Shown: one piece after another, positions 11,530 to 64,000 of the stretch
How positions within the stretch are numbered: the first letter of the stretch is position 1
How the letters are laid out: each line of letters starts with the position of its first letter
Virus record (IMG/VR): IMGVR_UViG_3300020733_000013
Coordinates: 11,891-75,890 of that record
Length of the DNA stretch: 64,000 bases
Reading direction: 5' to 3' (one strand)
DNA from: a virus
The notes under the pieces: model-generated
What the model was told of the DNA's origin: nothing
The model's database searches: none
The model's input: the letters and a program-made list of their open reading frames with translations, nothing else
Made by a program: the position numbers and the translations under genes

Positions 11530-12170
11530 TTGTCGGTGTGTGTGGTTTCATCGGTAGTGGTAAAGATACGATTGCAGACTATCTTTGCACACATCATAAG
11601 TTTAAGCGAATTAGTTTTGCAGCCAGTCTTAAAGATGCAGTAGCAGCAATCTTTGGTTGGGACAGAGAATTACTAGAGGGAACGACAAAAAGCAGTCGTC
11701 AATGGCGTGAACAAGTAGATCCTTGGTGGAGTGAACGATTAGGTAAAGATATCACACCCCGTTGGATACTACAATATTGGGGCACAGAAGTCTGTCGTCA
11801 AGGCTTTCACGATGATATTTGGGTAGCAAGCGTAGAGAATAAACTACGCCAAGCAAAGGATGATATTGTCATCACCGACTGTCGTTTTGCTAACGAGATT
11901 AAAGCTATCAAAGATGCAGGTGGCATCACAGTACGAGTATCTAGGGGAGACGAACCTGAATGGTACAGTGCAGCAGTTGAATACAACAAGGGACCAAACG
12001 GTAATCCCATGTGGGCACTGAGCAAAGCTAAACTAGACAAACTAAAAGTACATGCTAGTGAGTATTCTAGTGTTGGATTAAAGTATGATTATTACCTAGA
12101 CAACAATGGAACAATTGATGAACTACACAATCATATTAGTCAACTGTTAGATCACCACGACGCCACGTAA
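11526..12170 (+). CDS. Deoxynucleoside monophosphate kinase (T4 gp1-like)
   Basis: GFIGSGKDT P-loop, SFAASLKD, TPRWILQYWGTE, ITDCRFANE, HASE. Confidence 0.9.
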   Translation: MIVGVCGFIGSGKDTIADYLCTHHKFKRISFAASLKDAVAAIFGWDRELLEGTTKSSRQWREQVDPWWSERLGKDITPRWILQYWGTEVCRQGFHDDIWVASVENKLRQAKDDIVITDCRFANEIKAIKDAGGITVRVSRGDEPEWYSAAVEYNKGPNGNPMWALSKAKLDKLKVHASEYSSVGLKYDYYLDNNGTIDELHNHISQLLDHHDAT

Positions 12171-38083: not shown

Positions 38084-40354
38084 ATGCACCCAGAAATCGA
38101 AGCCATCATTGAACATGCAATTGAATTGGCTAAGTCAAAAAGCCATCAATATTGTACAGTAGAGCACTTGTTACTAAGCCTAGTATCACATGCTCCCTTT
38201 AAGAAAGTGTTAGACTCTTATGGAGTTGACACTGAAATGATGACTAAGGAAATTGACGTATACTTAAATGGGTTACAAGCAATTACAGTAACACTAGGTC
38301 CCGGACAAGAGATTCAACCACGTAAAACAAATAGTTTGGAACGTGTTACAAACCGTGCAGTAGCACAAACATTGTTCTTGGGTCGTAAACAAGTTACAAC
38401 TATTGACCTTTACTTGAGCATTTCAAGCGAAGCAAATAGTCATGCACATTATTTCTTGTTGAAATATGGCATTGAGAAAAGTCAATTTGTACCTTACTGG
38501 CAAAAGAATTACAAGAACGAAGGTGCTCTTGTACGATTAAGCAACGAACAAGCAGACGAAATCTTAGAAGAATACACAACAAACTTGACTGATTTGGCTC
38601 GTCAGCATAAACTAGAACCAATGATCGGTCGTAGCCAAGAAGTTGATGACATTGTAAACGTATTGGCTAAACGTTTCAAAAGCAACGTGTTACTAGTTGG
38701 TGATCCAGGTGTAGGTAAAACTGCTATTGTCGAAGGTATGGCTCAAATGATTGCAGAAGGTAACGTGCCTGAGTTCTTAGTTGGTCACGAAGTTTACAGC
38801 TTGGAAATCGGTAGCTTACTTGCTGGTAGTAAATATCGCGGTGACTTTGAAGAAAAGGTCAAAGCAGTCATTGAAGCACTTAACACCAAGAAACAAACTA
38901 TCTTGTTTATTGACGAAGCACATACAATGCAAGGTGCAGGTTCAAGTTCTCAAAGTGGTCCAGACTTTGCAAACATGATTAAGCCTGCAATTACAAAAGG
39001 TACATTGAAAGTTATTGCAAGTACTACTTGGGAAGAGTACTATGAGAGTTTTGAGAAGGATCGTGCATTAATGCGTAGATTCTATCGTGTCTCAGTAGAT
39101 GAACCAAATCGTGATTCAACAGTTCGCATTTTAAGTGGCTTAAGTGGTCGTTTGGATGACTTCCATAGTGTTAAGATCACACCCGAAGCGGTTGAAGCAG
39201 CAGTTGACAGTGCTACACGTTACATGCATGACCGTAAAAATCCTGATAAATCTATTGACTTATTAGATGCAGCTTGTGCTAAACAACGTGTATTAGGTAA
39301 CAAAGACGCACAAATCACTAAAGAATTGATTTACGAGCAAGTTGAACGTATCTCTGGAGTACCAGCAGATAAACTCAGTAACGACAACAACGAACGTATC
39401 ACAAACCTTGAGTCTAATATCAAAGACAAATTGTACGGTCAAGAGGAATCAGTTAGTAAAGTACTTGACCGTATATATGTCTCGTTTGCAGGTATCGGTA
39501 GTCAAACTAAACCACTTGCAAGTTTCTTATTCTTGGGCCCAACTGGTACAGGTAAGACTGAACTGGCTAAGCAATTGAGCAAGAACTTAGATATGCCATT
39601 ACTCAAATATGATATGAGCGAGTATTCAGAGAAGTTCAATGTTAGTTCATTGCTTGGTGCGCCTCCTGGATATGTTGGTTATGGTGAAAGTAGCTTAGGT
39701 GGTGGTAAACTTATCAATGACTTGAGTAAGAATCCACATGCTATTCTATTGTTTGATGAAGTTGAAAAAGCTCACCCAGATATCTTTAACATTTTCTTGC
39801 AATTACTTGACGAAGGTCGTGTAACAGGAACTAATGGTAAAGAAGTCAATGCTAAAAACTGTATAATTATCATGACCAGTAACTTGGGTAGTAGTGACAG
39901 CGAACGTGCAGTAATTGGTTTTGGTAGTACTGAACGTACGGGTGATGATGAAAAAGCATTGAAGGACTTCTTCAAGCCTGAATTCAGAAACCGTATTGAC
40001 TTGATTACTAAGTTCAACAAACTTGACAATCTTGCAATTAAGAAAGTGGTTATCAAGTTTACTGACGAGTTAAAGAAAGCATTGAAGGATACACAAGATA
40101 TCGTGTTGACTTTAACAGAACCAGTAGTTGATTACTTAGCAGAACAGGGCTACGATAGTAAGATGGGCGCACGTCCTCTTGCACGTAAAATTGATGAACT
40201 AATTCGTGTTCCATTGAGTAAGAAGATTCTTTTTGAACGTATTAGAAGTGCAAATATTACTGTAGTGATGAATGACGGTAAAGTTGATTTTGAAGTACAT
40301 CAAAAAATGATTGCAGAAGTAGGCGAAGATGGCATTATTAAAATCAGCAACTAA
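38084..40354 (+). CDS. clpA: ClpA-type Hsp100 AAA+ ATPase
   Basis: Clp N-domain, GDPGVGKT and GPTGTGKT, LLFDEVEKAHPD, IGF loop, no ClpB M-domain. Confidence 0.9.
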   Translation: MHPEIEAIIEHAIELAKSKSHQYCTVEHLLLSLVSHAPFKKVLDSYGVDTEMMTKEIDVYLNGLQAITVTLGPGQEIQPRKTNSLERVTNRAVAQTLFLGRKQVTTIDLYLSISSEANSHAHYFLLKYGIEKSQFVPYWQKNYKNEGALVRLSNEQADEILEEYTTNLTDLARQHKLEPMIGRSQEVDDIVNVLAKRFKSNVLLVGDPGVGKTAIVEGMAQMIAEGNVPEFLVGHEVYSLEIGSLLAGSKYRGDFEEKVKAVIEALNTKKQTILFIDEAHTMQGAGSSSQSGPDFANMIKPAITKGTLKVIASTTWEEYYESFEKDRALMRRFYRVSVDEPNRDSTVRILSGLSGRLDDFHSVKITPEAVEAAVDSATRYMHDRKNPDKSIDLLDAACAKQRVLGNKDAQITKELIYEQVERISGVPADKLSNDNNERITNLESNIKDKLYGQEESVSKVLDRIYVSFAGIGSQTKPLASFLFLGPTGTGKTELAKQLSKNLDMPLLKYDMSEYSEKFNVSSLLGAPPGYVGYGESSLGGGKLINDLSKNPHAILLFDEVEKAHPDIFNIFLQLLDEGRVTGTNGKEVNAKNCIIIMTSNLGSSDSERAVIGFGSTERTGDDEKALKDFFKPEFRNRIDLITKFNKLDNLAIKKVVIKFTDELKKALKDTQDIVLTLTEPVVDYLAEQGYDSKMGARPLARKIDELIRVPLSKKILFERIRSANITVVMNDGKVDFEVHQKMIAEVGEDGIIKISN

Positions 40355-41244: not shown

Positions 41245-41582
41245 TGGCACAAAGTTCAGCATATCAATTGTTGCCACAAACAGCATACAAACAAGTTTCA
41301 CAAGTGATTGGTGATAAAGTTCCTGCCGCCGCATATTATATCAAGCAAAACAATATGCAGACATTCACATGGAATCTTACAACATTTACCGGTCTATTAC
41401 AAATTCAAGCAACACTAGCAGATAATCCAGGCAATGGTGACTGGTTCACTATCTATAACCTATCAGGTAATCAATTAACTCAAACTAGCTTTACTAATAT
41501 ATCTGGTAACTTTGTTTGGGTTCGTGCTGTAATCAATAACTTTGGTTTTGGTGTTGTTCAAAGTGTTAAGGTTAGCTATTAA
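41244..41582 (+). CDS. Small beta-sandwich-like virion protein
   Basis: IQATLA..P...DWF...GNFVWVRA; TAATG coupling. Confidence 0.6.
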   Translation: MAQSSAYQLLPQTAYKQVSQVIGDKVPAAAYYIKQNNMQTFTWNLTTFTGLLQIQATLADNPGNGDWFTIYNLSGNQLTQTSFTNISGNFVWVRAVINNFGFGVVQSVKVSY

Positions 41583-44500
41583 TGAAAATTGCCGCACTAT
41601 TAGAAAGTAAACAACCATTGATGGAAGGTGGTAATTTAAGTGTGGGCAAACATGAAGCAGAACACTTAGATTTGAAAGTTACAAAACGTAGCTACATGGT
41701 TCCCAAACTCAATGAACTATTAAACGCAATCAATAAAGCATTCAATGTAAAACACAAGGCTCCATTATGGAGTAGTGAATTATTGTCAAGCGGTAAGTTT
41801 TTGAGTGGTAGTAGTTTACATTTCTTTGATGTTGCGGGTATCAGTGATGATACATTCTTTGCTAAGAAGCCAACTGTAGGTGATATTGATACCATGGTTG
41901 ACAAACGTTTGGAATTCATTTTACAAGAATTCTTAACAAGTGCAACAAATAAACAAATTGGTCCTGCAAAATTGCTAGGATTTCAAAAAGGTAACGAACA
42001 ATATTCTGCATTGTTTGAGTTACAAGACCCACCCGTAAAAGTACAAATTGACTTTGAATTTGTTTCTTTTGAGAATGGAATGCCTAGCGACTGGGCAAGA
42101 TTTAGTCATAGCAGTTCATGGGATGATATCCAACAAGGTGTTAAGGGTGTATTTCATAAGTGGTTGATTCAATCATTGACTACACTAACCAACAAGCAAT
42201 TCCTGTTACGTAAAATGATCGGTCGTGGTGCAATGCGTAAAGAAGAGGACATCCCTACAACAGACAACATGTATAGTTTTGCCGTGTCTAGTAAAGAAGG
42301 TGGCGGATTACGTGCTAAGTACGAACCAGTATTAAATCCTAACACAAACAAACCATTAGTGATTAAGGGTTTGCCTGTAATGAAAGCAGCACCTGCAGCT
42401 GGATACGAACAAAACATTGGTAAGATTTTTTCAACTATACTAGGCAAACGTCTTGACCCTAAACAAATGCAAGCTATCTCTAATAACTTCTGGTCATTCA
42501 CTGGGTTAGTACAGTTGATGGGTAAGATATTATCACCAGAAGATAAACAAACAGTATTGCTCGGTTTCTTAAACAAAACAATCGGTAAAGGTAGTCAAGG
42601 TCTTTACAAGAACAATCCAGAAAAAGATATCAGTGAAAAAACAACAGCAATCAATTATCTAGTTAAAACATTAGGACTACAATTGCCACCTGAGTTCAAT
42701 CAAATGATGGCTGACTATAGAAAAAACTATAAGATGACTGAACTATCAGAAGCAGGTCCTAACTATAAGCGTCAAGGTATCCCACACATTTACAAGCCTG
42801 GCTCAACAGTTGAATTGAAAGATAATGAGTTCATTGAGTTATGTAAAGAAATCATGGCTGATGGTGGTAAACTTGAAGGTGTACCAATCAACTTGAAAGT
42901 TGATGGTGCAGGCATCAGATTTGGTAAAGACCAAAATGGTCGTCCATTCTTTATGACAAGTAAAGTTACAGAACCTAAATACATTGAGAATTTTGGTGAC
43001 TTTGAAAAGTATGGTCGTAGTGTTGGACAAGACGAAGAACGATTGAACTTTACTAAGCAATATGACAATGCATTAAAGACAATATTGACTGCTCCATTTA
43101 TGAAAGTTATCCCTAGTGATACTATCGTACAAGCAGAAATGATGTATACTCCAATGGCTCAACAAGAGAATGGCGGCTTGAAGTTTGTTAACATCCCTTA
43201 TGATCCTAAAAAGTTGGGTAAAGAGATGACTCTTGTACCATTCATGTTCAAACAGTTTAGCACTGGACAAGTTCGTCCTGACAGTCAAAAGATTAAAGAA
43301 GCACTATTAAAAACAAGCAATAGTAAAATTAAAATGGTTAACAACAACTTGCAACATAAAGGTATTGATGTTGCTAAGATTGTTAGTCCTATTGTTAAAA
43401 ACGCAGATACATTAAGTGCTGCGGTTGCTACTCGTGGAACAAATCCTACAAAAGAAAAAGCAAAAGCTATCTTGTCTCAAGCTAGACAACAACTAAGCAA
43501 TGCTATTATCAATGGACCTATTCCAGGTAAAGATCAATTGGGTGACATGATTGAAGGTCTTGTTATCAATATGCCTAGTGGTTTACTAGCTAAAGTAACA
43601 AGCACAGACATGGCAAACAAGATGGCTACTAAAATGGCTGCTCGTCAACCAGTCAAAGGTAATCAACGCCCTGCTGTAGTTGCTGTGGGCAGTGCGATTG
43701 GGCATGTAGGACATCAACAATTATTCAACCATGCAATCGCTCTAGCAAAACAAGTTGGTGGTCAACCTTACATGTTTATAGGACCTGCAGAAGGTAAAGA
43801 TGATCCTATTCCACCAAGTGTTAAAGTTGAAACATGGCATAAGTTATACCCACAACTAGCGAGTAACATATCAACTGTTAGTCATGAGGGCGGTACATTA
43901 CTACAGAAAATCAAACATGAGTTGATTAATCCTCAACCAGGTAAACCACCAAGATATGATACAATTTATATTGTTGTTGGTAGTGATAGACATGACATGG
44001 CTGAAAGTTGGAGCAAATCTCTAATGAAAGCAGTTAACAAGTTCCCTGGATATGAAGGTGTTAAAGTTGTTCCACATGTAACGTCACGTGATAAGAATGA
44101 AGGTGGTACAGGTATAAGCGGAACATTACTACGTAGTGTTTTATCAGACAAAACAAAAACTCCAGAACAGCAATTTGAAGTTTGGAATCATGCTTACAAT
44201 AGTGGTAACTATGGTGCTCAGAAACTACCGGCAGAGTGGATTCAGCACTTAATGAATATTGCTCGTAAGGGTATGGGAATGCAAACTATGAATGAGTCAA
44301 GAATCTTTAATCCAAAGTCATTAGTTAATGTATATTATGTTTCCCCTAATGGCAATCGTCATAAGTTAGCAAAAAGCATTCCGTATGATTTAGTTGAGAA
44401 ACTATTACATGCATTGAAAGTTAAAAAGAACATTGACATTCACATGGATGATGTTGAAGTTCGTCCTGCTGATCCCTCACAATATACAGTGAGCACCAGT

Positions 44501-45733
44501 CAGTTTGATGAAGGTTCAGAAGAAGCATTACAATATGCAACTAAAGCACATGCTGGGCAAACTCGTTCAGGTGGTGATCCATATATCAGTCACCCAGTTC
44601 GTGTAGCTAATCATATCAAGCAATTTAAAAAATCACATAACCTAGATGCATTAATTAGTGCAGCATACTTACATGATACAATTGAAGATACTGACACAAC
44701 ACAAGAAATCTTACACGATTTGTTTGGCGGATTAGTTGCTAGTCTTGTAATGGAACTTACAAGCGATCCAGAACAAATTAAAAAGATAGGTAAGGCTCAA
44801 TATCTAGCACACAAAATGGCTGCAATGAGTAGCTATGCACTAGTTATCAAACTTGCTGATAGATTAGATAATGTCAAAGATATCACTACTGCTAAGACTC
44901 CTGAATGGAGACACAAATATGCAACTGAAACTAATCACATCTTAGATTACATTGAAAAGCATCGTGCTTTGTCAGGTACCCATACTAAATTGATTGATAT
45001 GATTCGTGCTAAGTTGGCTGAGATTGACCAACCACAGCAAGATGTGGCGGAAGGCAAGAACATGCCAGACTTAGAACATGTTGGCGAAAGAGTAGTATCT
45101 GTTATGGATGCTGAACGCAGACTTGCCCATGGAGATAGAATATTTGCGTTCCACGAAATGGATGAAGAGCCGTTTGAGATTCACAATGTCGGTGAGTTGG
45201 CAGGATATGATACTGAACAGTTATTGGCAGTACCACAAAGTGTAGCGGAAGAAGCAGACGAACAAAAAAGCTCAAATGTCTTTCAATCTATGGGTAGTCA
45301 ATTAATTGCTATGGGTAATGATGCTGATAAAATTAAAAGGCATGACCCATCAGTTATTGAAAAAGCAATTGATGCTAAATTAGAAAAAATCAATGATCCA
45401 AAACTTACACATGTTACGAAATCCTTTTTGAGTAAAGTTGTTAAGTTCAATAGAAGTAATCCAAAAACAATGGCAGCAATATTTGGATTTACCTTCTCTA
45501 TTATTGCTAGAGTATCAATGCAATTTAGTCATAATATGGGACTTAGTCCAACACAAGCAACATTACTAATAGAAGCATTATTGCCTACATTGGGTAATTT
45601 CTTGGGTTACATTGTCAATGGGTTTAGTGTAAAAGACAGTGTACAAGCTGGATTGATTGCTGGAACAATTGGCGTCGGCGGCACCTTGGCTGCAAGCGGT
45701 GCATTGTCTGAAGATTATTTAGACGAAAAATAA
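41582..45733 (+). CDS. Multi-enzyme putative head-cargo polyprotein (nucleotidyltransferase-like; KxDG ligase-like; HxGH cytidylyltransferase-like; RelA/SpoT HD hydrolase; small cassettes)
   Basis: LSGSS...GDIDTMVD; INLKVDGAG...EGLVI; AIGHVGH...VVGSDR...ISGTLLR; HAGQTR..GDPYISHP..LHDTIEDT..IKLADRLDN; linkers LMEG, LSEA, MNES, FDEG, VAEG, VAEE, LSED. Confidence 0.8.
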   Translation: MKIAALLESKQPLMEGGNLSVGKHEAEHLDLKVTKRSYMVPKLNELLNAINKAFNVKHKAPLWSSELLSSGKFLSGSSLHFFDVAGISDDTFFAKKPTVGDIDTMVDKRLEFILQEFLTSATNKQIGPAKLLGFQKGNEQYSALFELQDPPVKVQIDFEFVSFENGMPSDWARFSHSSSWDDIQQGVKGVFHKWLIQSLTTLTNKQFLLRKMIGRGAMRKEEDIPTTDNMYSFAVSSKEGGGLRAKYEPVLNPNTNKPLVIKGLPVMKAAPAAGYEQNIGKIFSTILGKRLDPKQMQAISNNFWSFTGLVQLMGKILSPEDKQTVLLGFLNKTIGKGSQGLYKNNPEKDISEKTTAINYLVKTLGLQLPPEFNQMMADYRKNYKMTELSEAGPNYKRQGIPHIYKPGSTVELKDNEFIELCKEIMADGGKLEGVPINLKVDGAGIRFGKDQNGRPFFMTSKVTEPKYIENFGDFEKYGRSVGQDEERLNFTKQYDNALKTILTAPFMKVIPSDTIVQAEMMYTPMAQQENGGLKFVNIPYDPKKLGKEMTLVPFMFKQFSTGQVRPDSQKIKEALLKTSNSKIKMVNNNLQHKGIDVAKIVSPIVKNADTLSAAVATRGTNPTKEKAKAILSQARQQLSNAIINGPIPGKDQLGDMIEGLVINMPSGLLAKVTSTDMANKMATKMAARQPVKGNQRPAVVAVGSAIGHVGHQQLFNHAIALAKQVGGQPYMFIGPAEGKDDPIPPSVKVETWHKLYPQLASNISTVSHEGGTLLQKIKHELINPQPGKPPRYDTIYIVVGSDRHDMAESWSKSLMKAVNKFPGYEGVKVVPHVTSRDKNEGGTGISGTLLRSVLSDKTKTPEQQFEVWNHAYNSGNYGAQKLPAEWIQHLMNIARKGMGMQTMNESRIFNPKSLVNVYYVSPNGNRHKLAKSIPYDLVEKLLHALKVKKNIDIHMDDVEVRPADPSQYTVSTSQFDEGSEEALQYATKAHAGQTRSGGDPYISHPVRVANHIKQFKKSHNLDALISAAYLHDTIEDTDTTQEILHDLFGGLVASLVMELTSDPEQIKKIGKAQYLAHKMAAMSSYALVIKLADRLDNVKDITTAKTPEWRHKYATETNHILDYIEKHRALSGTHTKLIDMIRAKLAEIDQPQQDVAEGKNMPDLEHVGERVVSVMDAERRLAHGDRIFAFHEMDEEPFEIHNVGELAGYDTEQLLAVPQSVAEEADEQKSSNVFQSMGSQLIAMGNDADKIKRHDPSVIEKAIDAKLEKINDPKLTHVTKSFLSKVVKFNRSNPKTMAAIFGFTFSIIARVSMQFSHNMGLSPTQATLLIEALLPTLGNFLGYIVNGFSVKDSVQAGLIAGTIGVGGTLAASGALSEDYLDEK
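45038..45252 (+). repeat. Two degenerate copies of the QGVAEG repeat inside the 1383-aa gene
   Basis: CAAGATGTGGCGGAAGG at 45038-45054 (1 mismatch in 17) and CAAAGTGTAGCGGAAGA at 45236-45252; period 198 nt. Confidence 0.8.
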
Positions 45734-45783
45734 TTTGACCCCCTCTTTATTGTGTAAATATCTTTATCTTTAAAGAGGACCTT

Positions 45784-46761
45784 ATGGCAACAAAGAAAAC
45801 AACTACAACTGCTACACCAGCAGTTAAGACAACTAAAGCTCCTGCAAAAGCTAAAGCAGAAGCAAAAACAGTACCAGTCGAAAAGGTACAAGAAATTGCT
45901 GAACAAGCACAACAAGAACAAAAACCCGCAGATGGTCAAGTTCAAGTTAACGTAGATTTTCTACGCACAACTAAAGTACATATTGCTATGCCATGTTATG
46001 GTGGTATGTTGACTGAATCTACATTCATGTCATTCATCAAGTGGGCAAATACTGCTCGTCAATTGGGTATTGATTGGACATTAGAAACAATGGTCAATGA
46101 GTCACTTATCAGTCGTGCTCGTAACACACTAACAGCAAAGTTCTTAGAACAAGAAGGTGCAACACACTTGTTCTTTGTTGATGCAGATATTGGTTGGGAA
46201 CCATGGCATTTGTTAGTTCTATTGAACCGTGATGTTGATGTTATCGGTGGATTGTACCCAATGAAAACAATGCCAATCAAATGGGTTGTTAATGGATTTG
46301 AAGGTGCAGAAGAAGGTACAGATGGCTTACAAGAAGTAAGTAAAGCAGGTACAGGTTTCTTGTTGATGAAACGTCATGTATTTGAGAAAATGAACAGTCA
46401 CCCAGCTGTTAAACCATACAAAAATGATATCGGTTTAGATCCAAAATATGACCAACACTTGAAAACATACTTTGACACAGCAGTTCGTCAAGGTCGTTAC
46501 TACAGTGAAGACTGGACATTCTGTGAAAACTGGCGTGATATTGGTGGTAAAGTTTGGGTTGACAAACGTGTATTATTGCGTCATAGTGGTTCATATGTAT
46601 TCTGCATGGAAAATCAGAACTATTTGATGGATACAATTGGTCCTATGTATGTTCAACAACAGCAACAAGTAGCACAACAGCAACAAGCACCAGCAGTTGC
46701 TACCCCTGTGGCTACACAAAACAAAGCTCCTGTAAAGAAAGCAGCAACACGTAAGAAGTAA
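45784..46761 (+). CDS. Glycosyltransferase-like (GT-A fold) protein
   Basis: IAMPCYGG, ESLISRARN, HLFFVDADIGW (DxD), GTGFLLMKR.VF, SEDWTFC. Confidence 0.75.
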   Translation: MATKKTTTTATPAVKTTKAPAKAKAEAKTVPVEKVQEIAEQAQQEQKPADGQVQVNVDFLRTTKVHIAMPCYGGMLTESTFMSFIKWANTARQLGIDWTLETMVNESLISRARNTLTAKFLEQEGATHLFFVDADIGWEPWHLLVLLNRDVDVIGGLYPMKTMPIKWVVNGFEGAEEGTDGLQEVSKAGTGFLLMKRHVFEKMNSHPAVKPYKNDIGLDPKYDQHLKTYFDTAVRQGRYYSEDWTFCENWRDIGGKVWVDKRVLLRHSGSYVFCMENQNYLMDTIGPMYVQQQQQVAQQQQAPAVATPVATQNKAPVKKAATRKK

Positions 46762-52872: not shown

Positions 52873-54474
52873 ATGACAACAAGAATAAAAATCAGACGAG
52901 ATTCATCTAGTAATTGGAGCACAGTTAATCCAATATTAGCCTTAGGAGAACTAGGACTAGACACTACTCTTAATAAGTTAAAAGTAGGTGATGGCACCAC
53001 TCATTGGACTAGTTTAAATTTTATTCACGATGGTGCTGATACCGGTGATATCAGTTTCAATGGTACATGGATACACAACACAGGTTCGGGCAATATCTAT
53101 ATTAGTCCGCAAGACGGTAACACATGGTTATATTTACCAAGTGACAGTCAAGCTGGTAGTGAGACGGTTGACTTAGCAAACGTTGATGACAACGGAGTAG
53201 TTACTATCAGAACCAATAGTCATGTATGGTCATTTGATAGTACAGGTAAATTAAATGTCCCTCAAAATGCAGGCATAGACGTTAACTGGGCAAGTGATAC
53301 TGCAGGTAGTGGTAGTGATGGACACTATGATTCTGCAAGAATTAATAATGACCATGCAAATGGATTATACATCACAAACACAATGGATGGTACTCCTAGT
53401 ACTTGGTTGTTTGGTAAAGAAGGCAATCTAACACTACCCTCAAATTCTAGTGCAATTAACTATGCGAATGGCACAAGCATTTTAAGTGGGTTAGGTGTTA
53501 ATAGTATTGATGGTGGTTTAGCTGACAATAGTGTTGGAATCACAATAACTACATATACTCTCGCTACTGACACAGGTGGATATGACAACAGTGGTTCAGT
53601 AACATACAACATTGCTAGTGAAGGTGCATTAACAGCCGGAGTATTTATAAAAGGTCTTACAGTAGGTCATACACAAACAATAACCGGTGACTATAATCAA
53701 GGTGACAATACTGTATCTTGGGGTCAGAGTGGTATAGATTACGAATTGTGGGAACAAGTAGCATCAGTGACAGCGTTTGTTACCGATAGTAGAGGTTACA
53801 CATTCTATACAGTAGTACAAGATTCATGGGATGTTCCGCATGGTCCTTGTTTAGTTGAAGGCACTCAGATTACAATGGCTGATGGCTCACACAAAGCTAT
53901 TGAAGATATTCAACATGGTGAACTAGTTCGTGTATGGAACTTTGACTTAGGTGAATTCAGTGAAGCACAACCAATATGGATCAAAGTTGCAGAAGAAACA
54001 ACTGGACACGATGTTTATACATTCAGTGACGGTACAAAACTACGCACAGTTGGACATCATGTGTTTAACAAAGAAGCTGGTAAGTTTACTAAGTTGAAAT
54101 ACAAAGATACTCCAATCGGAACTACAACGTTCAATGAGAAGGGTGAAGAAGTTACACTATTAAGTAAAGAGCGTGTAACAGAACCAACTCGTTATTACAA
54201 CGTATGGACTCAATACCACTTGAACTTGTTTGCTGATGGTATATTAACAAGTAACAGATTCAACAACACATACCCAATCGTTGACATGAAGTTTGTCAAA
54301 GATGATAGAAAACTAAGAGATATCAGTGAGTTTGCTGGTATTGATGAGAAATATATCAGTGGATTAAGATTACAAGAACAATCACAAGAATACACTGCTC
54401 AATATATCAGTGATTACGTTCACAATAGATTAGAGCGTTTAGATATCGCTAATCAAAAAACACAGGAAGTATAA
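52873..54474 (+). CDS. Fibre protein: Mtd-N-like domain plus C-terminal Hint domain
   Basis: IKIRRD..NW...NPILALGELGLDT..KLKVGDG...W..L; CLVEGTQITMADGSHKAIEDI...YNV...FADGILTSN. Confidence 0.8.
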   Translation: MTTRIKIRRDSSSNWSTVNPILALGELGLDTTLNKLKVGDGTTHWTSLNFIHDGADTGDISFNGTWIHNTGSGNIYISPQDGNTWLYLPSDSQAGSETVDLANVDDNGVVTIRTNSHVWSFDSTGKLNVPQNAGIDVNWASDTAGSGSDGHYDSARINNDHANGLYITNTMDGTPSTWLFGKEGNLTLPSNSSAINYANGTSILSGLGVNSIDGGLADNSVGITITTYTLATDTGGYDNSGSVTYNIASEGALTAGVFIKGLTVGHTQTITGDYNQGDNTVSWGQSGIDYELWEQVASVTAFVTDSRGYTFYTVVQDSWDVPHGPCLVEGTQITMADGSHKAIEDIQHGELVRVWNFDLGEFSEAQPIWIKVAEETTGHDVYTFSDGTKLRTVGHHVFNKEAGKFTKLKYKDTPIGTTTFNEKGEEVTLLSKERVTEPTRYYNVWTQYHLNLFADGILTSNRFNNTYPIVDMKFVKDDRKLRDISEFAGIDEKYISGLRLQEQSQEYTAQYISDYVHNRLERLDIANQKTQEV

Positions 54475-54476
54475 GA

Positions 54477-57400
54477 ATGTCAACAATTCAAATTAGAAAA
54501 GATACATCAGATAATTGGGCAGCAGCCAATCCAACACTTGCATTAGGTGAGTTAGGTTTAGATACAACACATAATCAAATTAAAGCAGGTGACGGTGTTA
54601 CAGCATGGGATAGTTTACCCTATCTTAAAGGAGATACAGGTAACATAACATTTAGTGGCGGCGAACTTAACAATTCGACAGGTGGAGATATAGCTATTAC
54701 ACCAAGCGAAGGTAACACAGCTTTAATCTTACCCGGTGATACTAACTCTAACGCAGGCGAACCTACATTCCTTCAGAATACAGGATCTGGTGGTATTGTA
54801 CTATCTACTGGTCAAGGTAATTTAAATATTGGTAATGCTGATGGTCCCACACAACCAACACATTTACATATTAGACAAGACAATCCAGCAAACGTTAATT
54901 TATTCTTAGGTGATGACAATCAATTTGTTAAATTAGCAACTGATGGTACAACAGTTGTTCAAGCAAGAATAGGTTCAGAAGCACAAGCAATAGTTAGTGG
55001 TGCACCTATTGGAATAACATATTCTACTCAAATTACATATATCACTAGAGCAACACCTGCAGTAGTAACGGTTGCTGATACTAGTGGATTAAGTGCAGGT
55101 GTAACAGTTTATTTGCATGAAATCACACAAACAGATTGGATTTCTTTGAGGGATACCTCCTACTATGTAGGTTCAGTAATTGATGGCACTACTTTTAATT
55201 TGTACACTGATTCTGGACTAACAACGCCTCTAAATACCACAGCAATAAATTCTGAATGGGGTGGCGGTGATCCACAAGCAGACGGAAATGCTGTATTATT
55301 GTCAAACCCCGGTGAAGCATATATAATTGCCGGCTTTGATAGTACTAACATTACTAATGGATGGGGTAATTCTTATATAGGCGGCGGCAATGTCACTATT
55401 GAAACAACAAATGGGTTGTTTACATTTGATAGTACCGGTGCTCTTAATTTAGAAGCATACGGTGTCATTCGCAATGGCGGTGAAGGATCAGTTAATATTG
55501 TTGGTAGTAATTTTGCTCAACTACAATGGACTGTTGATGGTATTAATACACCAAATCCAAACTATGATTCAAACGTTTATAATTGGTTGTATGTAGATGA
55601 ATATGGTACACACATTGGTGGTAGCACAAACTATGGATGGGACTTTAATACAAACGGTGTACTAAATGCACCTGCTCTAGGTGAAGTTATTGCTACACAT
55701 GAGTTCAACATCACTGCTAGAGACTATCAACACGAAGGCACTACATTTGTTAATGTATTAAATCCTGCAGAAGTTCAAAACCCAGCAGACAATCAACCTT
55801 TCTACATCAAAGGTGTACAATATTTAAATAACGGTGATATCGTTGTAATTGGTGAAAGTTATGGTTTTAATACAGCATTTGTAAAAAGAATACATAGCAG
55901 TAACACTAGTGGTTACGCAGGAAATACAGTTTGGTCTTATCAACTATCAGGTAGCCCATATGGTTATGGATTAACAACTGACGCTAGTAATAATGTCTAT
56001 ATTACACTACAAAGCAATAATGATAGCTATGTTTTAAAATTAGACAGTAACGGCAATAAAGTATGGGAAACAAAAATTCACGGAACTAGCAAGACTGTAA
56101 ATGGCTTTAATTTAGATTACAACCAGAATGGATCAATAAGTCTTGTTGGTGTAATTAATAGTGGTGGAAACGACCAAAGTTTTATTGCTCAACTTGATTG
56201 TGTTACTGGTGCTGTTAATTGGGAAAAATCTATCAGTGGTGCTGGATATGAAGATAGTTTTGGTATAGGTTGTGATAGTGCAGGTAATACACTAATTGTT
56301 GGTAATACACAAGATTCAAATCCAACTAAAGTATTTTTAGCATTGTTTGATATTAATGGTACTTTAACTTGGCAAAAATACTGGGGTAATGGAATTAATA
56401 TAAACAGTGCATTGCAAGGTGCCGATGTTTGCATTGACAGTTCAGGTAACTGGTATGTTTATACAACATGGAACAATGAGTCTATTAGTGTAGGTGTTAC
56501 AAAAATTGATTCTAGTGGTACTATTATCTGGAGTAAAGGCTTACAAGGTACATGTGAAGATTGGGCAGCAAGTATTGCAGTAGATAGTAGTGATAACCTA
56601 TATATCTATGGTACTATGACTAACCTTAATGGTATGTTTGACCAACAAACTTTCATAGGTGTAATGAGCCCAGCTGGATCATTACTGCATCAACATTACT
56701 TTGGTAAGAGAGGTAATTTTAATTTTCCAGGTGAAGCACCATGGGGCGATAATCCTTATTCAAATCAAGCTGGTCAAATGATTAGTGTTAATGGAACTAA
56801 CATTGTAGTAGCTGGTATGGTATCGACAGTTGGATTTGGTGATAACGCAACAGATCCAACTGAATCAATAACTGGATGGGTCGCACAAGTTCCTGCATTA
56901 TCTAATGATAGTTATAAAATTGGTGAATTTGAATTTTTAGTTTCTAATTTTAGTTTCAGTGATGTTGCTATTACCCCCGGTTCAGGTGCATTAACAATTG
57001 ATAATGCTGGATTAACAGTAACAATTAGCGGATCAGTATTTACATTACAACCTACTAATATCACATTCACAACATATCGTTTAGGTGATATGACATGGAC
57101 ATTTAGACAAGACGGTACACTCAATATGCCTTTTGGTAGCATTGGGTACATGGAATTGGGAACTAATGGCTTAGATTTGTATAGTGATATAGCTTCATGG
57201 GTTGGTCTTAACTATAACAATACCAACTGGGTAAGAGTTACTTCTGACGGTGCGTTTGTCAACACAAGCGGTGAATATCAATGGAGTTTCAACGATGATG
57301 GTTCAACAAGTTTACCAGGTAGTTTACATATCTCTCCAAACAGTGGAAATCCTATCATTGCTGCGAACAACAATAACTCATTAACAGTTGGTGCAGATTT

Positions 57401-59678
57401 AGATGTGACCGTTTCTTCAGCAAGTGGTGGTAAACAATGGGTATTTGATAGAAACGGTAAACTAACACTACCAGCTAATAGCTCAAATGACAGTGTAATA
57501 TACTCAGAAGCCGGTAACATAGAGTTATATACTAATAGGGAAAGTGGCTCTACTAAGATTCGTAACAAAGCAACACTAGACCAAACATGGACATTTAGTG
57601 ATGCTGGTTTAACATTCCCTGATACTACTACACAAACTACAGCATATACTGGACAAGTGGGCGCAGGTAATTCAGGATGGGCTTTATTATACGGTGGCAA
57701 TAAATTAGGATCAGGTGGTGAGCATGATTGGGTTGACTTTGATGGATCAGTAGTAGACGGTCAAGGTTATGTTTACTTCTTTGGTGGTACTATAGCATTT
57801 AGTCAAGGAAGCGGGGTATACAATCCTATCATTACAAAAGTAAACAGTGACGGTGGAGTAGAATGGTCTACTGTTATTCACGACTATTATGGTAAAGCGG
57901 TAGCAGCATTTTATATTGAAAGCAGCGGAGGCAACTATGTATTGTTGTACACAGATGATGAAACTGACACTACTACAACAAAACAATGGACTTATGGAGT
58001 AAATCCAGCAGACGGTTCATTATCTGAACAAAGCTACACTATTCCATCACAGTCCGGAGTTGGTGTTTGCTTGAGAGATGGTTGGGCATATACTTTGGCC
58101 GGGTCAGGTACATTAGCTATAGGTTGGGCAGGTTTCACTACAAATGAAATTGCTACAACTACATTAACTATTCTAACAGACCCTGCTCCAGATTCAACAT
58201 CATTTAGTGTGTTGAAGACTAATGTACCGGGACTAACATTATATAATTATAGTGTTTGTTTTATTGATACAATGAATACTATATCAGGTATTGATGACAA
58301 TTCAACTTATTGGACTATTCATGTAGGCACACCAGCAGACTTTACTACTGGTTCACATACTATTCAGATTCCACAAAACAGTAACGCAACTATTGGCGTT
58401 GTATACACGGGCGGCGGCGCTTGGTTGTCTGTTGGTACTGCTGGGAACACATATGAATATTATTCTAGTACCGCAGTTGATAAAACTAACGGTACTATCT
58501 ATGCAGTAGGTAATGATGATAATGGACATAGCATTGTATCTAGTTTTAGTATAAGTAGTGGACTAGTTGCAAACTGGCATAAACGAATCAATTTAAGTAC
58601 ATCATATCTTCAATTAACCGGTGTTGATGTTGATATTGGTGGCAGTGCAATTTATGTAGTTGGTGATGGTGATAACGGTTGTGGTTATATTACTAAAATG
58701 GATTCAACTGGACACATAATATGGCAAAGAAAAATTGATGACAGTGGTCAACCTTTTGGCGTCAGTGAATTAAGTGTAGCGGTGGGTACAGGTAATGAAA
58801 TTATTGTTGCTTGTGGCAGTTATGGCAGCGACTTCACACAGAATAATGCTGTTCTAATTGTTAGATTTAATTCAAACGGTGATACAGTATGGCAGCGTCA
58901 ACTTGATACCAGTTGGAGTGATTATGCAGGCGCCGGTTGGGACAGCTACGGTACCGGAACTCCAAGATTCGTATCAGCGGACGGTATCAGCTATTATCTA
59001 TCATTAGCGATTAACGGTAGTGGACCGCAAACAGACGGTGGTGGTGTTAAACTACCATTGAATGGAGAAGGCACAGGCTCATGGGGTAGCGGAGACGGCA
59101 CATGGAACTATACCAATGTATCATGGCCAATAACTTCAATTGACGTTACTGCTGATAGCACTAGTATCACTGATTTCGTAGTATCTACTCTTAGCACCAC
59201 TAGTGGTTCAGGTTCTACTCCAAGTGTGTATACTGGTATTAAACCAGCAAATACTACTATCATTGGTTCTGATGCAATTAAGGGAATTGATAGAGCCGCA
59301 GTCAGTCATGGTAACGATACTATCACACTAGATATAACACATAATGGTAAATTCATTTACTATTATACTAATACTAGCGCTGGTTATCCAACTATCATTG
59401 TACCTAATAATAATAGTGTTCAATTACCAATTGGATATACTGTTACTATGGCAGTAGATACATTCAGTTACAACGGCTCACATTATGTAGTTAACATTAA
59501 TACCAATGGTGATACTAGCAATGGATTGATTATTAATGCTAGTGGAATTATAGCAGACAGCTATACTGGTAACTATTGGGGTATCGCAGGTGACGGTAAA
59601 CCTGGTATCTATACATTAATGAAAGTAGATACTAATCGCTGGATACTAAGTGGTCCTAACGTGTTCATCAACGATTAA
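54477..59678 (+). CDS. Giant fibre/adhesin: Mtd-N-like domain plus two beta-propeller regions
   Basis: IQIRKD..NW..ANPTLALGELGLDT; repeated D.SGN.Y / K.DSSG...W.K blades; WxFxxxGxLxxP repeats. Confidence 0.8.
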   Translation: MSTIQIRKDTSDNWAAANPTLALGELGLDTTHNQIKAGDGVTAWDSLPYLKGDTGNITFSGGELNNSTGGDIAITPSEGNTALILPGDTNSNAGEPTFLQNTGSGGIVLSTGQGNLNIGNADGPTQPTHLHIRQDNPANVNLFLGDDNQFVKLATDGTTVVQARIGSEAQAIVSGAPIGITYSTQITYITRATPAVVTVADTSGLSAGVTVYLHEITQTDWISLRDTSYYVGSVIDGTTFNLYTDSGLTTPLNTTAINSEWGGGDPQADGNAVLLSNPGEAYIIAGFDSTNITNGWGNSYIGGGNVTIETTNGLFTFDSTGALNLEAYGVIRNGGEGSVNIVGSNFAQLQWTVDGINTPNPNYDSNVYNWLYVDEYGTHIGGSTNYGWDFNTNGVLNAPALGEVIATHEFNITARDYQHEGTTFVNVLNPAEVQNPADNQPFYIKGVQYLNNGDIVVIGESYGFNTAFVKRIHSSNTSGYAGNTVWSYQLSGSPYGYGLTTDASNNVYITLQSNNDSYVLKLDSNGNKVWETKIHGTSKTVNGFNLDYNQNGSISLVGVINSGGNDQSFIAQLDCVTGAVNWEKSISGAGYEDSFGIGCDSAGNTLIVGNTQDSNPTKVFLALFDINGTLTWQKYWGNGININSALQGADVCIDSSGNWYVYTTWNNESISVGVTKIDSSGTIIWSKGLQGTCEDWAASIAVDSSDNLYIYGTMTNLNGMFDQQTFIGVMSPAGSLLHQHYFGKRGNFNFPGEAPWGDNPYSNQAGQMISVNGTNIVVAGMVSTVGFGDNATDPTESITGWVAQVPALSNDSYKIGEFEFLVSNFSFSDVAITPGSGALTIDNAGLTVTISGSVFTLQPTNITFTTYRLGDMTWTFRQDGTLNMPFGSIGYMELGTNGLDLYSDIASWVGLNYNNTNWVRVTSDGAFVNTSGEYQWSFNDDGSTSLPGSLHISPNSGNPIIAANNNNSLTVGADLDVTVSSASGGKQWVFDRNGKLTLPANSSNDSVIYSEAGNIELYTNRESGSTKIRNKATLDQTWTFSDAGLTFPDTTTQTTAYTGQVGAGNSGWALLYGGNKLGSGGEHDWVDFDGSVVDGQGYVYFFGGTIAFSQGSGVYNPIITKVNSDGGVEWSTVIHDYYGKAVAAFYIESSGGNYVLLYTDDETDTTTTKQWTYGVNPADGSLSEQSYTIPSQSGVGVCLRDGWAYTLAGSGTLAIGWAGFTTNEIATTTLTILTDPAPDSTSFSVLKTNVPGLTLYNYSVCFIDTMNTISGIDDNSTYWTIHVGTPADFTTGSHTIQIPQNSNATIGVVYTGGGAWLSVGTAGNTYEYYSSTAVDKTNGTIYAVGNDDNGHSIVSSFSISSGLVANWHKRINLSTSYLQLTGVDVDIGGSAIYVVGDGDNGCGYITKMDSTGHIIWQRKIDDSGQPFGVSELSVAVGTGNEIIVACGSYGSDFTQNNAVLIVRFNSNGDTVWQRQLDTSWSDYAGAGWDSYGTGTPRFVSADGISYYLSLAINGSGPQTDGGGVKLPLNGEGTGSWGSGDGTWNYTNVSWPITSIDVTADSTSITDFVVSTLSTTSGSGSTPSVYTGIKPANTTIIGSDAIKGIDRAAVSHGNDTITLDITHNGKFIYYYTNTSAGYPTIIVPNNNSVQLPIGYTVTMAVDTFSYNGSHYVVNINTNGDTSNGLIINASGIIADSYTGNYWGIAGDGKPGIYTLMKVDTNRWILSGPNVFIND

Positions 59679-62344: not shown

Positions 62345-64000
62345 ATGAAAATTAATGAAACTTTCACAACCACATCAACTGATCCAGTAGGAAATCAGAG
62401 CCAACAAGCTCCTCACTTTGGTCGTTCAAACAAGGTCTTAGAAAAGAAAGACAAAGTTGAAGAAACTAGTGCAGGTGCTACAGGTTCAGGATCAATTGCT
62501 ACTGTATCAAATCCAATCGGTGGAATTAAGTCTCGTGGTAGTATTTTTTCTGGTGTAAAAACTAGCTCAAAATATCCCAACAGCAGAAAAGCTGGCATCA
62601 AAGAAAATAAAGAAGTAGAAGAAGGTCGATATTATAATCGTGATGCATATCAACGTGACTATGATTCAAGTCGTACAGGGTTTGGTCGTAGAGGTCGTGA
62701 AGACGATGAATATGTCAATGGACCAGATAAACTAACTTACAAAGTTCGTATCTTAGTGATTAACCCAGAAGGTGCTGAGGAAGATAGAACTGTAACTATC
62801 ACTACGGCAAAAGGTCCTGAATTTGCAAAAACACGTTCAATTAAACATTTAACTGACAAGGGTTATAAAATTCGTAAAGTATTTGATCCTGTAGAATCAG
62901 GATTAAATGAAGATGATGAACCTGAAGGTGAAACATTAAAAAATAGTCTTCACACTATTGTTCGTGTAGCATCAGATTTAGATGAAAGATTAAGTGTTGA
63001 TGAAGATTTTCCTGAATGGGTAAGTGAGAAAATCGGTACTGTAAAATCAATGTTGGTTAGTGTCATGGATTATTTAATCAGTGACCAAGAAATGCGTCAT
63101 GATCCTGATGCCATGAATGAAAGTGGTGGTCGTACAGTTTATGACATGGACAAAGAATATGGCGCACCTGCACAAAGACATAAGCCAGTAATTGCTCGTG
63201 GTAGTAGTTCAAGATATGATCCAGATGCAGTAGATCCTATGCACAGAGATCAACGCAGATTCCAAGCTGACCAAGATCGTTACTTGCAAGCACAGCGTGA
63301 TGCCATTGCCAAAATGAAAGCTGAAAAAGGCTTAGAAGAAGGCAGTGACGAACTATATCAAAAGGCTATTCACAAGTATGCTCAACGAGTAGCAGATGAC
63401 TACTTGGGTGGTGGCAATGAATATCTTTATGGTGCCAACAAGTTTGATAGCGAAATGTTTGGAGTAGATCCTAAACAAGCACAACAAGACTTTAAGACAT
63501 TGTTTGCTCAACTAACAAAACAACAAGGTGTGGCGGAAGGATTGGATGGCCGTGCTAGTGCTACCCCGGCAATAAACAAACGCGGAAAATTCACATCGTG
63601 GGACGAGAATGAACCTATGCGTTTGAAATGTCAAGATGGTGAGTTCAGAACCATACAAGAAATCAATGTGCTTAGACAGAAAATGGGAATGAAACCTTTT
63701 TCTATCAAAGGCGAACAAGGTGTGGCGGAAGGCTCTGAGAACTTTACAATAACACAAAAGAAAGATCAGTCATATCCCGGCTCACTTCAGGTCGTTATCA
63801 CTGATAAATCTACTGGTAAACAAAAAGTTATTGCTGGCGATCCAAGAAAAATAAAACAACAAATCAAACAAGAGTTTGGTATAGATTATAACTTTAGTCA
63901 ACAAGGTGTGGCGGAAGGCAGAGTGTTGCACCGAGATTTGAAATCTTGGACAGATGACGCAAAATCGCAAGGGTTGAATGTTATTAAACCAAAAAATGAT
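62345..64000 (+). CDS. Modular putative head-cargo polyprotein with QGVAEG repeats, 3' truncated (missing from the ORF track)
   Basis: ATG 62345 after late box 62318-62323; by my translation open to the window end (MKINETF...VEETSAG...VEEGRYY...LNEDD...MNESG...KGLEEGS...QGVAEGL...QGVAEGS...QGVAEGR...). Confidence 0.85.
   Translation, partial: MKINETFTTTSTDPVGNQSQQAPHFGRSNKVLEKKDKVEETSAGATGSGSIATVSNPIGGIKSRGSIFSGVKTSSKYPNSRKAGIKENKEVEEGRYYNRDAYQRDYDSSRTGFGRRGREDDEYVNGPDKLTYKVRILVINPEGAEEDRTVTITTAKGPEFAKTRSIKHLTDKGYKIRKVFDPVESGLNEDDEPEGETLKNSLHTIVRVASDLDERLSVDEDFPEWVSEKIGTVKSMLVSVMDYLISDQEMRHDPDAMNESGGRTVYDMDKEYGAPAQRHKPVIARGSSSRYDPDAVDPMHRDQRRFQADQDRYLQAQRDAIAKMKAEKGLEEGSDELYQKAIHKYAQRVADDYLGGGNEYLYGANKFDSEMFGVDPKQAQQDFKTLFAQLTKQQGVAEGLDGRASATPAINKRGKFTSWDENEPMRLKCQDGEFRTIQEINVLRQKMGMKPFSIKGEQGVAEGSENFTITQKKDQSYPGSLQVVITDKSTGKQKVIAGDPRKIKQQIKQEFGIDYNFSQQGVAEGRVLHRDLKSWTDDAKSQGLNVIKPKND
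63522..63918 (+). repeat. Three identical 19-nt in-frame direct repeats AACAAGGTGTGGCGGAAGG
   Basis: 63522-63540, 63714-63732, 63900-63918; periods 192 and 186 nt; intervening sequences unrelated. Confidence 0.95.

Follow-up and report, generated by a model that had tools for sequence, protein, structure and literature searches.

A short translated repeat marks cassette exchange and a predicted protease site in polyprotein genes of freshwater giant phages

Introduction

The nearest known counterparts of the system described here are the internal head proteins IPI, IPII, IPIII and Alt of phage T4, from which the gp21 protease removes a capsid-targeting sequence (PMC3012670, PMC9026906, PMC5694885). 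Processing depends on residues 8 and 10 of this sequence (positions P3 and P1) and is blocked when Asp occupies P1 (PMC9026906). Proteases of the T4, phiKZ and SPN3US types all cut after Glu (PMC5694885). It has been proposed that evolution uses the short T4 leader as a means of bringing varied proteins into the head (PMC3012670, PMC9026906, PMC5694885). In this article, we analyze a short in-frame repeat, termed the joint (canonical peptide QGVAEG), that separates modules of two polyprotein genes, P0001 and P0002, in a 64,000-nucleotide (nt) stretch of virus record IMGVR_UViG_3300020733_000013 (positions 11,891 to 75,890 of the record; hereafter the window).

The nearest known recombination logic, by analogy only, is that of the CdiA-CT VENN joint and the Rhs core/tip junction (PMC3150448). 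In CdiA, module homology begins and ends exactly at the short VENN tract, and recombination between such tracts has been proposed (PMC3150448). We show that exchange junctions in the phage genes fall at the joint. On this basis and that of its peptide signature, we propose with moderate confidence that the joint doubles as a cassette-swap point and a gp21-type protease site in freshwater giant phages, and that the two copies in P0001 are decayed joints. W denotes the window's own sequence and gene version, and labels beginning with L, P, G and X denote related loci, proteins, genomes and lake contigs, respectively. A slash in a peptide marks the module border.

Results

Joint copies inside the window

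The 17-nt pattern CARRRTGTRGCGGAAGR, allowing one mismatch at most, has five matches in the window and none in 100 shuffles. Two of these lie in frame in P0001, a multi-domain polyprotein gene with an open reading frame (ORF) of 1383 amino acids (aa) (41582-45733, plus strand). Copy 1, CAAGATGTGGCGGAAGG, spans 45038-45054 on the plus strand and encodes QDVAEG (Q1153-G1158); copy 2, CAAAGTGTAGCGGAAGA, spans 45236-45252 on the same strand and encodes QSVAEE (Q1219-E1224). The other three are identical canonical copies, CAAGGTGTGGCGGAAGG, at 63524, 63716 and 63902 (span 63524-63918, plus strand) in P0002, a second polyprotein gene that is cut by the contig end (62345-64000, plus strand) and that had no match in a search of known phages. 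The joint is a translated direct repeat and has no dyad symmetry.

The canonical spelling is CAAGGTGTGGCGGAA(GG). Over the 17-mer, copy 1 is one mismatch away from it and copy 2 three, and all four mismatches are G-to-A, which is the direction of compositional drift in W's genome. Ala is encoded by GCG in all five window copies, although GCG makes up 5% of the Ala codons of the contig, and Val by GTG in four of the five, although GTG makes up 7.7% of the Val codons. Judged by sequence, copies 1 and 2 are degenerate members of the set of cassette polyproteins joined by QGVAEG.

The initial annotation had placed repeats bracketing 66 codons of P0001 at 45038 and 45236, and both are present there in frame. 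It had also read the repeat as dispersed, as opposed to the product of a local tandem duplication; this holds, since the modules flanked by the copies are mutually unrelated. The similarity in cassette size on which it remarked is real (spacings of 198, 192 and 186 nt) but does not define the system, given that internal modules between joints range from 4 to 955 aa in the wider set.

Exchange at the first copy

Copy 1 closes an HD cassette (residues 906-1157; 44297-45052, plus strand) that consists of a small N-terminal part, an FDE/G site and an HD domain of the alarmone hydrolase type. Pfam HD_4 matches residues 982-1120 at 62.1 bits (cut-off 27.2), PDB chains of MESH1 and small alarmone hydrolases (SAH) align to residues 981-1137 (3nr1, 5vxa and 6z3o at 1e-15 to 2e-9), and alignments to free-standing phage HD proteins reach residues 1154-1156. 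The module is a predicted RelA/SpoT-type small alarmone hydrolase domain, and its end coincides with the first copy, as had been annotated initially.

Two related loci carry this cassette at high nucleotide identity to W (L002, 97.1%; L003, 98.7%), and the three versions diverge at once after Q-x-V-A-E, right behind the joint. To the right of it, W has a 66-aa domain (M66), L002 has a GNAT-like module of 107 aa, a module of 80 aa, a second joint and then M66, and L003 has an unrelated module beginning SNNTITEY. The L002 insert amounts to 561 nt relative to W and lies exactly between two joint copies. W itself is a mosaic: it is nearest to L003 on the left of the joint and near-identical to L002 from the joint rightwards (1 mismatch in ~260 aligned nt), and its nucleotide identity changes partner exactly at copy 1. 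The expectation that orthologues would differ precisely at the repeat is therefore borne out.

Exchange also crosses between genes. P0003 and P0004 have M66 and the C-terminal tail that follows it in P0001 at 98-100% identity, here preceded by a different cytidylyltransferase gene and by the SNNTITEY module. The unit of M66 and tail therefore ends two different gene families, in which it is found, at that same identity, behind three different upstream partners. The GNAT-like module of L002 recurs at 92% identity in another ORF of L006. This same L006 ORF carries the last visible module of P0002, which is also present in the M66-led polyproteins P0011, P0013, P0016 and P0019.

Each of the three architectures was recovered in Logan contigs from other lake samples. 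X3 is of the W type, contiguous over 44674-45800 with no mismatch; X12 is of the L002 type, with a 545-nt insertion between two joint copies; and X4 and X5 are of the L003 type. Copy 1 is thus a live insertion and exchange point between the HD module and M66. The initial annotation had proposed that the repeat lets modules move between genes. Exchange exactly at the repeat is observed, and a causal role of the repeat, beyond marking permissible junctions, is what we infer.

A second mosaic breakpoint lies at the other end of the HD cassette, at an M-N-E site (residues 903-905; 44288-44296, plus strand) with no shared DNA repeat. The nucleotide similarity of W to L002 and L003 begins at 44303, and the sequence ahead of the site is unrelated. 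This breakpoint (44296/44303) reads ..TMNE/SR in W and ..SLEE/TR in L002 and L003. Since it falls at M-N-E or L-E-E without a repeat, protease-like sites mark module borders even where there is no DNA joint. In L001, a 56%-identical orthologue, the domains of P0001 are split over separate genes and the HD protein is free-standing; an ORF of this locus stops about 7 residues ahead of the module border that W has at M-N-E. A gene for an IscA/HesB-like Fe-S scaffold with a C-terminal CGCG motif separates the split polyprotein gene of this locus from that of the free-standing HD protein (L001:7480-7803).

Two further observations were made on the lake contigs. Short X4/X5 contigs of 121-132 nt place M66 behind other upstream sequence without a joint (..IVYTAHK/GKNMPD). 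The break, at window position 45051, is within the Glu codon of the joint and gives a fourth left-hand context, seen only in contigs of this length. In the spacer to the next gene (45800-45853), a 52-nt stretch is skipped in X4 and X5, and a similar 51-nt skip occurs in X12; this is an intergenic indel polymorphism.

The 66-aa domain, the tail and the second copy

M66 comprises 66 codons (residues 1158-1223; 45053-45250, plus strand) and runs from [IM]PDLE through GDRIFAFHEMDEEP to QLLAVP. It is a conserved acidic alpha/beta mini-domain. Its AlphaFold2 model, a small alpha/beta domain with unstructured ends (pLDDT 84.7, pTM 0.72), indicates a real folded unit. No match was found in Pfam, PDB or BFVD, where the best hits were unnamed small phage proteins (lowest BFVD E-value 0.02). 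The domain is found in 27 proteins of 188-1481 aa at 68-100% identity and in at least five backbones, which answers in the affirmative the question of the initial annotation whether homologues occur in other polyproteins. The largest group combines a conserved N-terminal leader and M66, a hypervariable string of cassettes split by QGVAE/[GA], and a conserved C-terminal module.

The borders of M66 are more varied than the constant xxVAEG for which the initial annotation had proposed a check. Directly after QLLAVP, 15 of the 27 proteins have QGVAE/G and four have QSVAE/E; the others have QGVTE, QGVEE, AGMAE/S, AGMFE/A, QHMSE/S, PAE/S, PAD/S or no site. Upstream, Glu stands within a few residues of the domain in nearly all proteins, and in P0025 a 9-residue N-terminal leader, MKIKQIITE, takes the place ahead of M66 that the joint has in W. 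M66 is thus bounded almost always by a hydrophobic-x-Glu site. A role as a universal capsid-targeting tag was considered and rejected, as only 4 of 134 joint-bearing ORFs contain it.

Copy 2 leads into a C-terminal tail of 160 aa plus the stop codon (45251-45733, plus strand), which has no family match and contains hydrophobic Gly/Ala-rich segments that resemble membrane helices by eye. The tail is 100% identical in L002 and in P0003/P0004, behind different upstream modules. All five relatives of the QSVAE type have this tail as right neighbor, whereas M66 family members with canonical QGVAE have 11 different right neighbors among 13 members. Exchange at copy 2 is seen only among more distant M66 carriers, including lake contigs whose M66 copies (~90% nucleotide identity) run into another module right after 45251. 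Copy 2 is degenerate and appears frozen in the W lineage, where M66 and the tail move as one 226-residue unit. This qualifies the reading that the initial annotation gave of the two copies.

Fixed spelling across viral contigs

The exact 17-mer is present in at least 120 viral contigs. Among the matches listed, 168 of 169 exact 17-mers follow the reading frame of an ORF of 60 aa or more, at loci of 30-66% GC. Complete joint-bearing genomes contain 2-6 copies each, at dispersed loci.

To avoid selection by codon spelling, loci were collected by peptide homology to an unrelated module. In this set, QGVAE is spelled with GTG GCG at all 43 sites, which lie in 29 distinct ORFs, and the identical 15-mer is present at 41 of them. 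Background codon use in the same ORFs is 18.6% for GTG and 8.9% for GCG. The 43 sites represent 39 unique contexts, and information content falls to noise within 3 nt on either side. As the two codons are invariant across these contexts while the flanks have diverged, the nucleotide sequence of the joint is held fixed independently of its surroundings. The joint is absent from two distant relatives, G004 and G005, that were reached by way of a different part of P0002; the Peptidase_S77 match of G005 was hence not used as support for what follows.

Right-hand neighbors were counted for modules grouped into families at ≥90% identity, for which the minimum possible ratio for pairs is 0.5. At canonical QGVAE junctions, 29 families with 89 members have 77 distinct right neighbors; at junctions with a one-substitution variant, nine families with 23 members have 13. 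The direction of this difference, in small samples, fits a dependence of exchange on the canonical spelling.

Peptide constraint and the prohead protease

Peptide variation was surveyed as single-residue changes of QGVAEG in unique contexts among 180 non-redundant proteins. Substitutions number 53 at P5, 13 at P4, 11 at P3 (10 of them to Met, Ile or Leu), 19 at P2, four at P1 and 74 at P1'. Glu at P1 is almost invariant and P3 is hydrophobic across the family, and copies 1 and 2 both retain V-A-E. The unstructured ends of the M66 model fit the exposed position that such a site would need. The variants keep what would be the determinants of cleavage by T4 gp21, a hydrophobic P3 and Glu at P1, and the substitution spectrum agrees with the genetics of the T4 capsid-targeting sequence.

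The joint is carried by five near-complete genomes of 300-400 kb, and the tail sheath of each is 52-58% identical to that of W. Four of them have a Peptidase_S77 match (G007, G008, G011 and G012), and G007 and G008 also match the Gp23 capsid protein. Kinship of these genomes to W is based on the sheath at the identity given. Because joint-bearing genomes with a similar sheath encode Peptidase_S77 and Gp23, W is assigned, on gene content, to an uncultured freshwater T4-type giant phage.

Other features of the window

The window forms the 3' part (64 kb) of a viral contig of 75.9 kb that is ~22% complete and has 38% GC. Lake metagenomes of at least 21 studies (2012-2018) contain it, and no RNA dataset is among the sequencing runs listed. 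Besides the polyproteins, it encodes a giant tail sheath of 1186 aa, a tail tube, fibers, a clamp loader and a ClpA/B-like ATPase. This last protein (38084-40354, plus strand; 756 aa) has two AAA+ domains, is encoded 1.2 kb upstream of P0001 and matches phrog_4871, 'ATP-dependent protease', at an E-value of 3e-235. Two adjacent fiber-like genes on the plus strand, of 533 aa (52873-54474) and 1733 aa (54477-59678), have a common N-terminal domain. The first ~85 residues of the shorter protein match tail-fiber PHROGs, and the N-terminal domain of the longer one scores as Pfam Mtd_N, the type of the major tropism determinant of BPP-1.

P0001 begins with the leader MKIAALLE (41582-41605, plus strand), which was read from the sequence and ends in L-x-E. 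It resembles the T4 leader for capsid targeting and processing and may have such a role here. An N-terminal domain of unknown function follows (residues 25-369, phrog_19290). A ligase-like region was recognized by eye from a KxDG motif and has no family match, and a cytidylyltransferase-like domain spans residues 675-855. The C-terminal part consists of the small domain and HD hydrolase, the 66-aa domain and the hydrophobic tail. Domains of P0001 are found as separate proteins in other phages. A 191-aa ORF that lies 4.2 kb before the window start (G000:C1:7693-8265) begins MKIKEVIIAE/G, a 10-residue leader that is close to the MKIKQIITE of P0025 and has the form of a T4 capsid-targeting sequence.

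Discussion

We propose that a freshwater clade of T4-type giant phages (~340-400 kb) uses the joint to connect autonomous small proteins and enzymes within precursor polyproteins. As a peptide, Q-G-V-A-E/G would be an unstructured linker carrying a gp21-type prohead protease site. Cleavage would free the modules as individual proteins, most likely within the head and as cargo for ejection; for P0001, these would be the alarmone hydrolase, M66 and the tail. That the phage's Peptidase_S77 protease cuts the joint and that the products are head cargo is, in our assessment, probable. At the DNA level, the identically spelled tract of 15-18 nt would be a crossover place between co-infecting relatives and between polyprotein genes, and crossovers there would insert, delete and exchange cassettes in frame. 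They may proceed by short-homology recombination or by template switching, using the phage's own machinery. We lean slightly towards the identical tract being itself the crossover substrate. This would account for the spelling lock, because the copies that recombine would be the copies that spread. A joint of canonical spelling would stay exchangeable and one that drifts towards the AT-rich composition of the genome would become fixed. Under this model, the joint at 45038 has stayed live between the HD module and M66, and that at 45236 would have frozen, leaving M66 and the tail as one unit.

Several points weigh against or limit this proposal, in which cleavage at any joint and the presence of the protein in the virion are predictions. 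The conservation of the DNA may itself have produced some of that seen in the peptide. No protease or major capsid protein was found in the 76-kb contig, which is 22% complete. Likewise, G006 (342,865 bp, 99% complete, reached through L064) has three joints and the giant sheath and no Pfam match to Peptidase_S77 or Gp23, so that it has either diverged head genes or a different maturation system. A membrane-like tail is unusual for internal proteins of the T4 type. A tract of 15-18 nt is short for classical homologous recombination, and no gene for a dedicated recombination enzyme was found, in work that included no systematic search for one. In addition, the contrast between live and frozen joints comes from small, phylogenetically non-independent samples, and the five QSVAE members are very close relatives.

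A stronger version of the proposal seems unlikely to us. In this version, a dedicated phage enzyme or a programmed template-switch mechanism would recognize the joint and actively carry in-frame cassettes from one polyprotein gene to another and between co-infecting phages. It would amount to an integron-like system for protein modules, in which the same six codons are also where the protease frees effectors delivered by the head. Another explanation, about as unlikely, is that the tract acts purely as DNA: a dedicated nuclease or recombinase, or a homing-type element, would recognize the 15-18-mer, and the peptide would be its mere translation. The extreme nucleotide lock, the exact breakpoints and the dispersal of two to six copies within complete genomes all speak for a DNA element, as the initial annotation had it. 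However, the repeat is also constrained as a peptide. It is essentially never out of frame or between genes (one exception in 169 copies), and its substitutions spare the P1 Glu and keep P3 hydrophobic. Moreover, it is a direct repeat as opposed to a palindrome, and no associated enzyme gene was found, again with no systematic search for one.

The converse explanation is also improbable. Here, the hexapeptide would be a protease site or flexible linker and nothing else, and the shared DNA spelling would reflect recent common descent of the copies. The retention of hydrophobic-x-E in the variants agrees with this, as does the breakpoint at 44296/44303, which indicates that viable junctions can arise without the joint. 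A peptide site cannot, however, account for the codon lock, because third codon positions are fixed in diverged contexts. Two rare codons recur at every one of the 43 sites in 39 unrelated contexts with fully diverged flanks, and neutral drift in host contigs of 30-66% GC would have randomized those positions. Right neighbors are also far more diverse at canonical joints than at one-substitution variants.

It is very improbable that the lock reflects an RNA or translation signal, in which the rare GTG GCG codons or the Shine-Dalgarno (SD)-like AAGG/GGAAGG would pause ribosomes or start modules internally. The Val codon is indeed fixed as GTG, and the commonest substitution of it is to ATG (8 of 11). 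In copy 1 of W, the in-frame ATG of Met1161 also has GGAAGG 7 nt ahead of it (window 45048-45064). However, the real gene starts of the contig, identified from first ATGs, have an AAGGA-type SD sequence 6-9 nt upstream, whereas the AAGG of the joint is 1 nt before GTG; an internal start at the GTG of the joint was rejected on this spacing. Furthermore, most modules have no Met near their start, and a start codon would leave the GCG lock unexplained. The spacing from GGAAGG to Met1161 does fit that of real genes of the contig, and a possible internal start for M66 and the tail is noted for this lineage only.

Artefacts have a negligible chance: metagenome assemblers can mis-join at repeats, but this repeat is shorter than the final assembly k-mers and the three architectures were each found in independent assemblies and samples, namely in IMG/VR contigs, among ENA proteins and in X3, X12 and X4/X5 from Logan at k=31, which excludes chimeras, and the unrelated modules on either side of the joint copies rule out tandem duplication.

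If the proposed dual role is correct, giant phages of lakes would draw on a common stock of small effector modules, among them an alarmone hydrolase, transferases, acetyltransferase-like domains and many modules of unknown kind. A single short sequence would allow in-frame splicing of a module into any carrier gene and its later release by the head protease. The evolution of counter-defence cargo would then be directly traceable, since the breakpoints are exact to the base. The joint would also offer a rule, taken from nature, for designing foreign proteins that T4-type capsids can take up, and it would be a clear example of synonymous sites under selection for recombination.

Comparison with known systems

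The T4 internal proteins resemble the modules of the joint system in that they are diverse, are probably anti-defence cargo and share only a short conserved peptide ending in hydrophobic-x-Glu. Their capsid-targeting sequence is processed after Glu with determinants at P3 and P1 (residues 8 and 10), the same as is predicted for the joint. The systems differ in layout. T4 has a separate gene for each cargo, each with one N-terminal leader, whereas here an internal joint links many unrelated modules within a single ORF. Unlike the T4 leader, the joint is fixed at synonymous positions and recurs in several genes; its cleavage and the packaging of its products are predicted. A translation product that is cut into functional parts at recurring short motifs, as proposed here, is known from the picornavirus 3C-type polyproteins and from the inner-body and ejection proteins of phiKZ and SPN3US, giant phages in which head proteins are cut after Glu at several sites. 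The sites in viral polyproteins and phiKZ-type proteins differ from the joint in that they are not nucleotide-conserved, have no known role in recombination and join modules whose content is stable among relatives.

Among systems of cassette exchange, CdiA and Rhs are bacterial and have a conserved delivery protein with a single variable toxin at its C terminus, a cognate immunity gene next to it and orphan modules that are not translated. The joint system belongs to phages and has several joints per ORF, modules in any position, multi-cassette arrays and probably a protease site in the same tract. Its modules are mostly not toxin-like (HD hydrolase, GNAT-like, transferase-like), and no immunity partners were seen. 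Integrons (attC/attI, IntI) likewise contain unrelated small cassettes that are bounded by a repeated site and are gained, lost and reshuffled. Integron cassettes, however, are whole genes moved by an integrase at the imperfect palindrome attC, in contrast to in-frame modules at a translated, non-palindromic direct repeat. The joint has no inverted repeat of the attC type, and no integrase is known here, in the same absence of a systematic search.

QGVAEG was not found as a term in the phage literature, nor did the literature searched describe in-frame multi-cassette arrays that recur in several genes and whose connecting tract is invariant at silent sites. This locus contributes exchange across gene families at 98-100% identity and three architectures that coexist in lake metagenomes. 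It also adds a live joint and a decayed, frozen joint beside the same domain, and a 66-aa cassette that is a widely reused domain.

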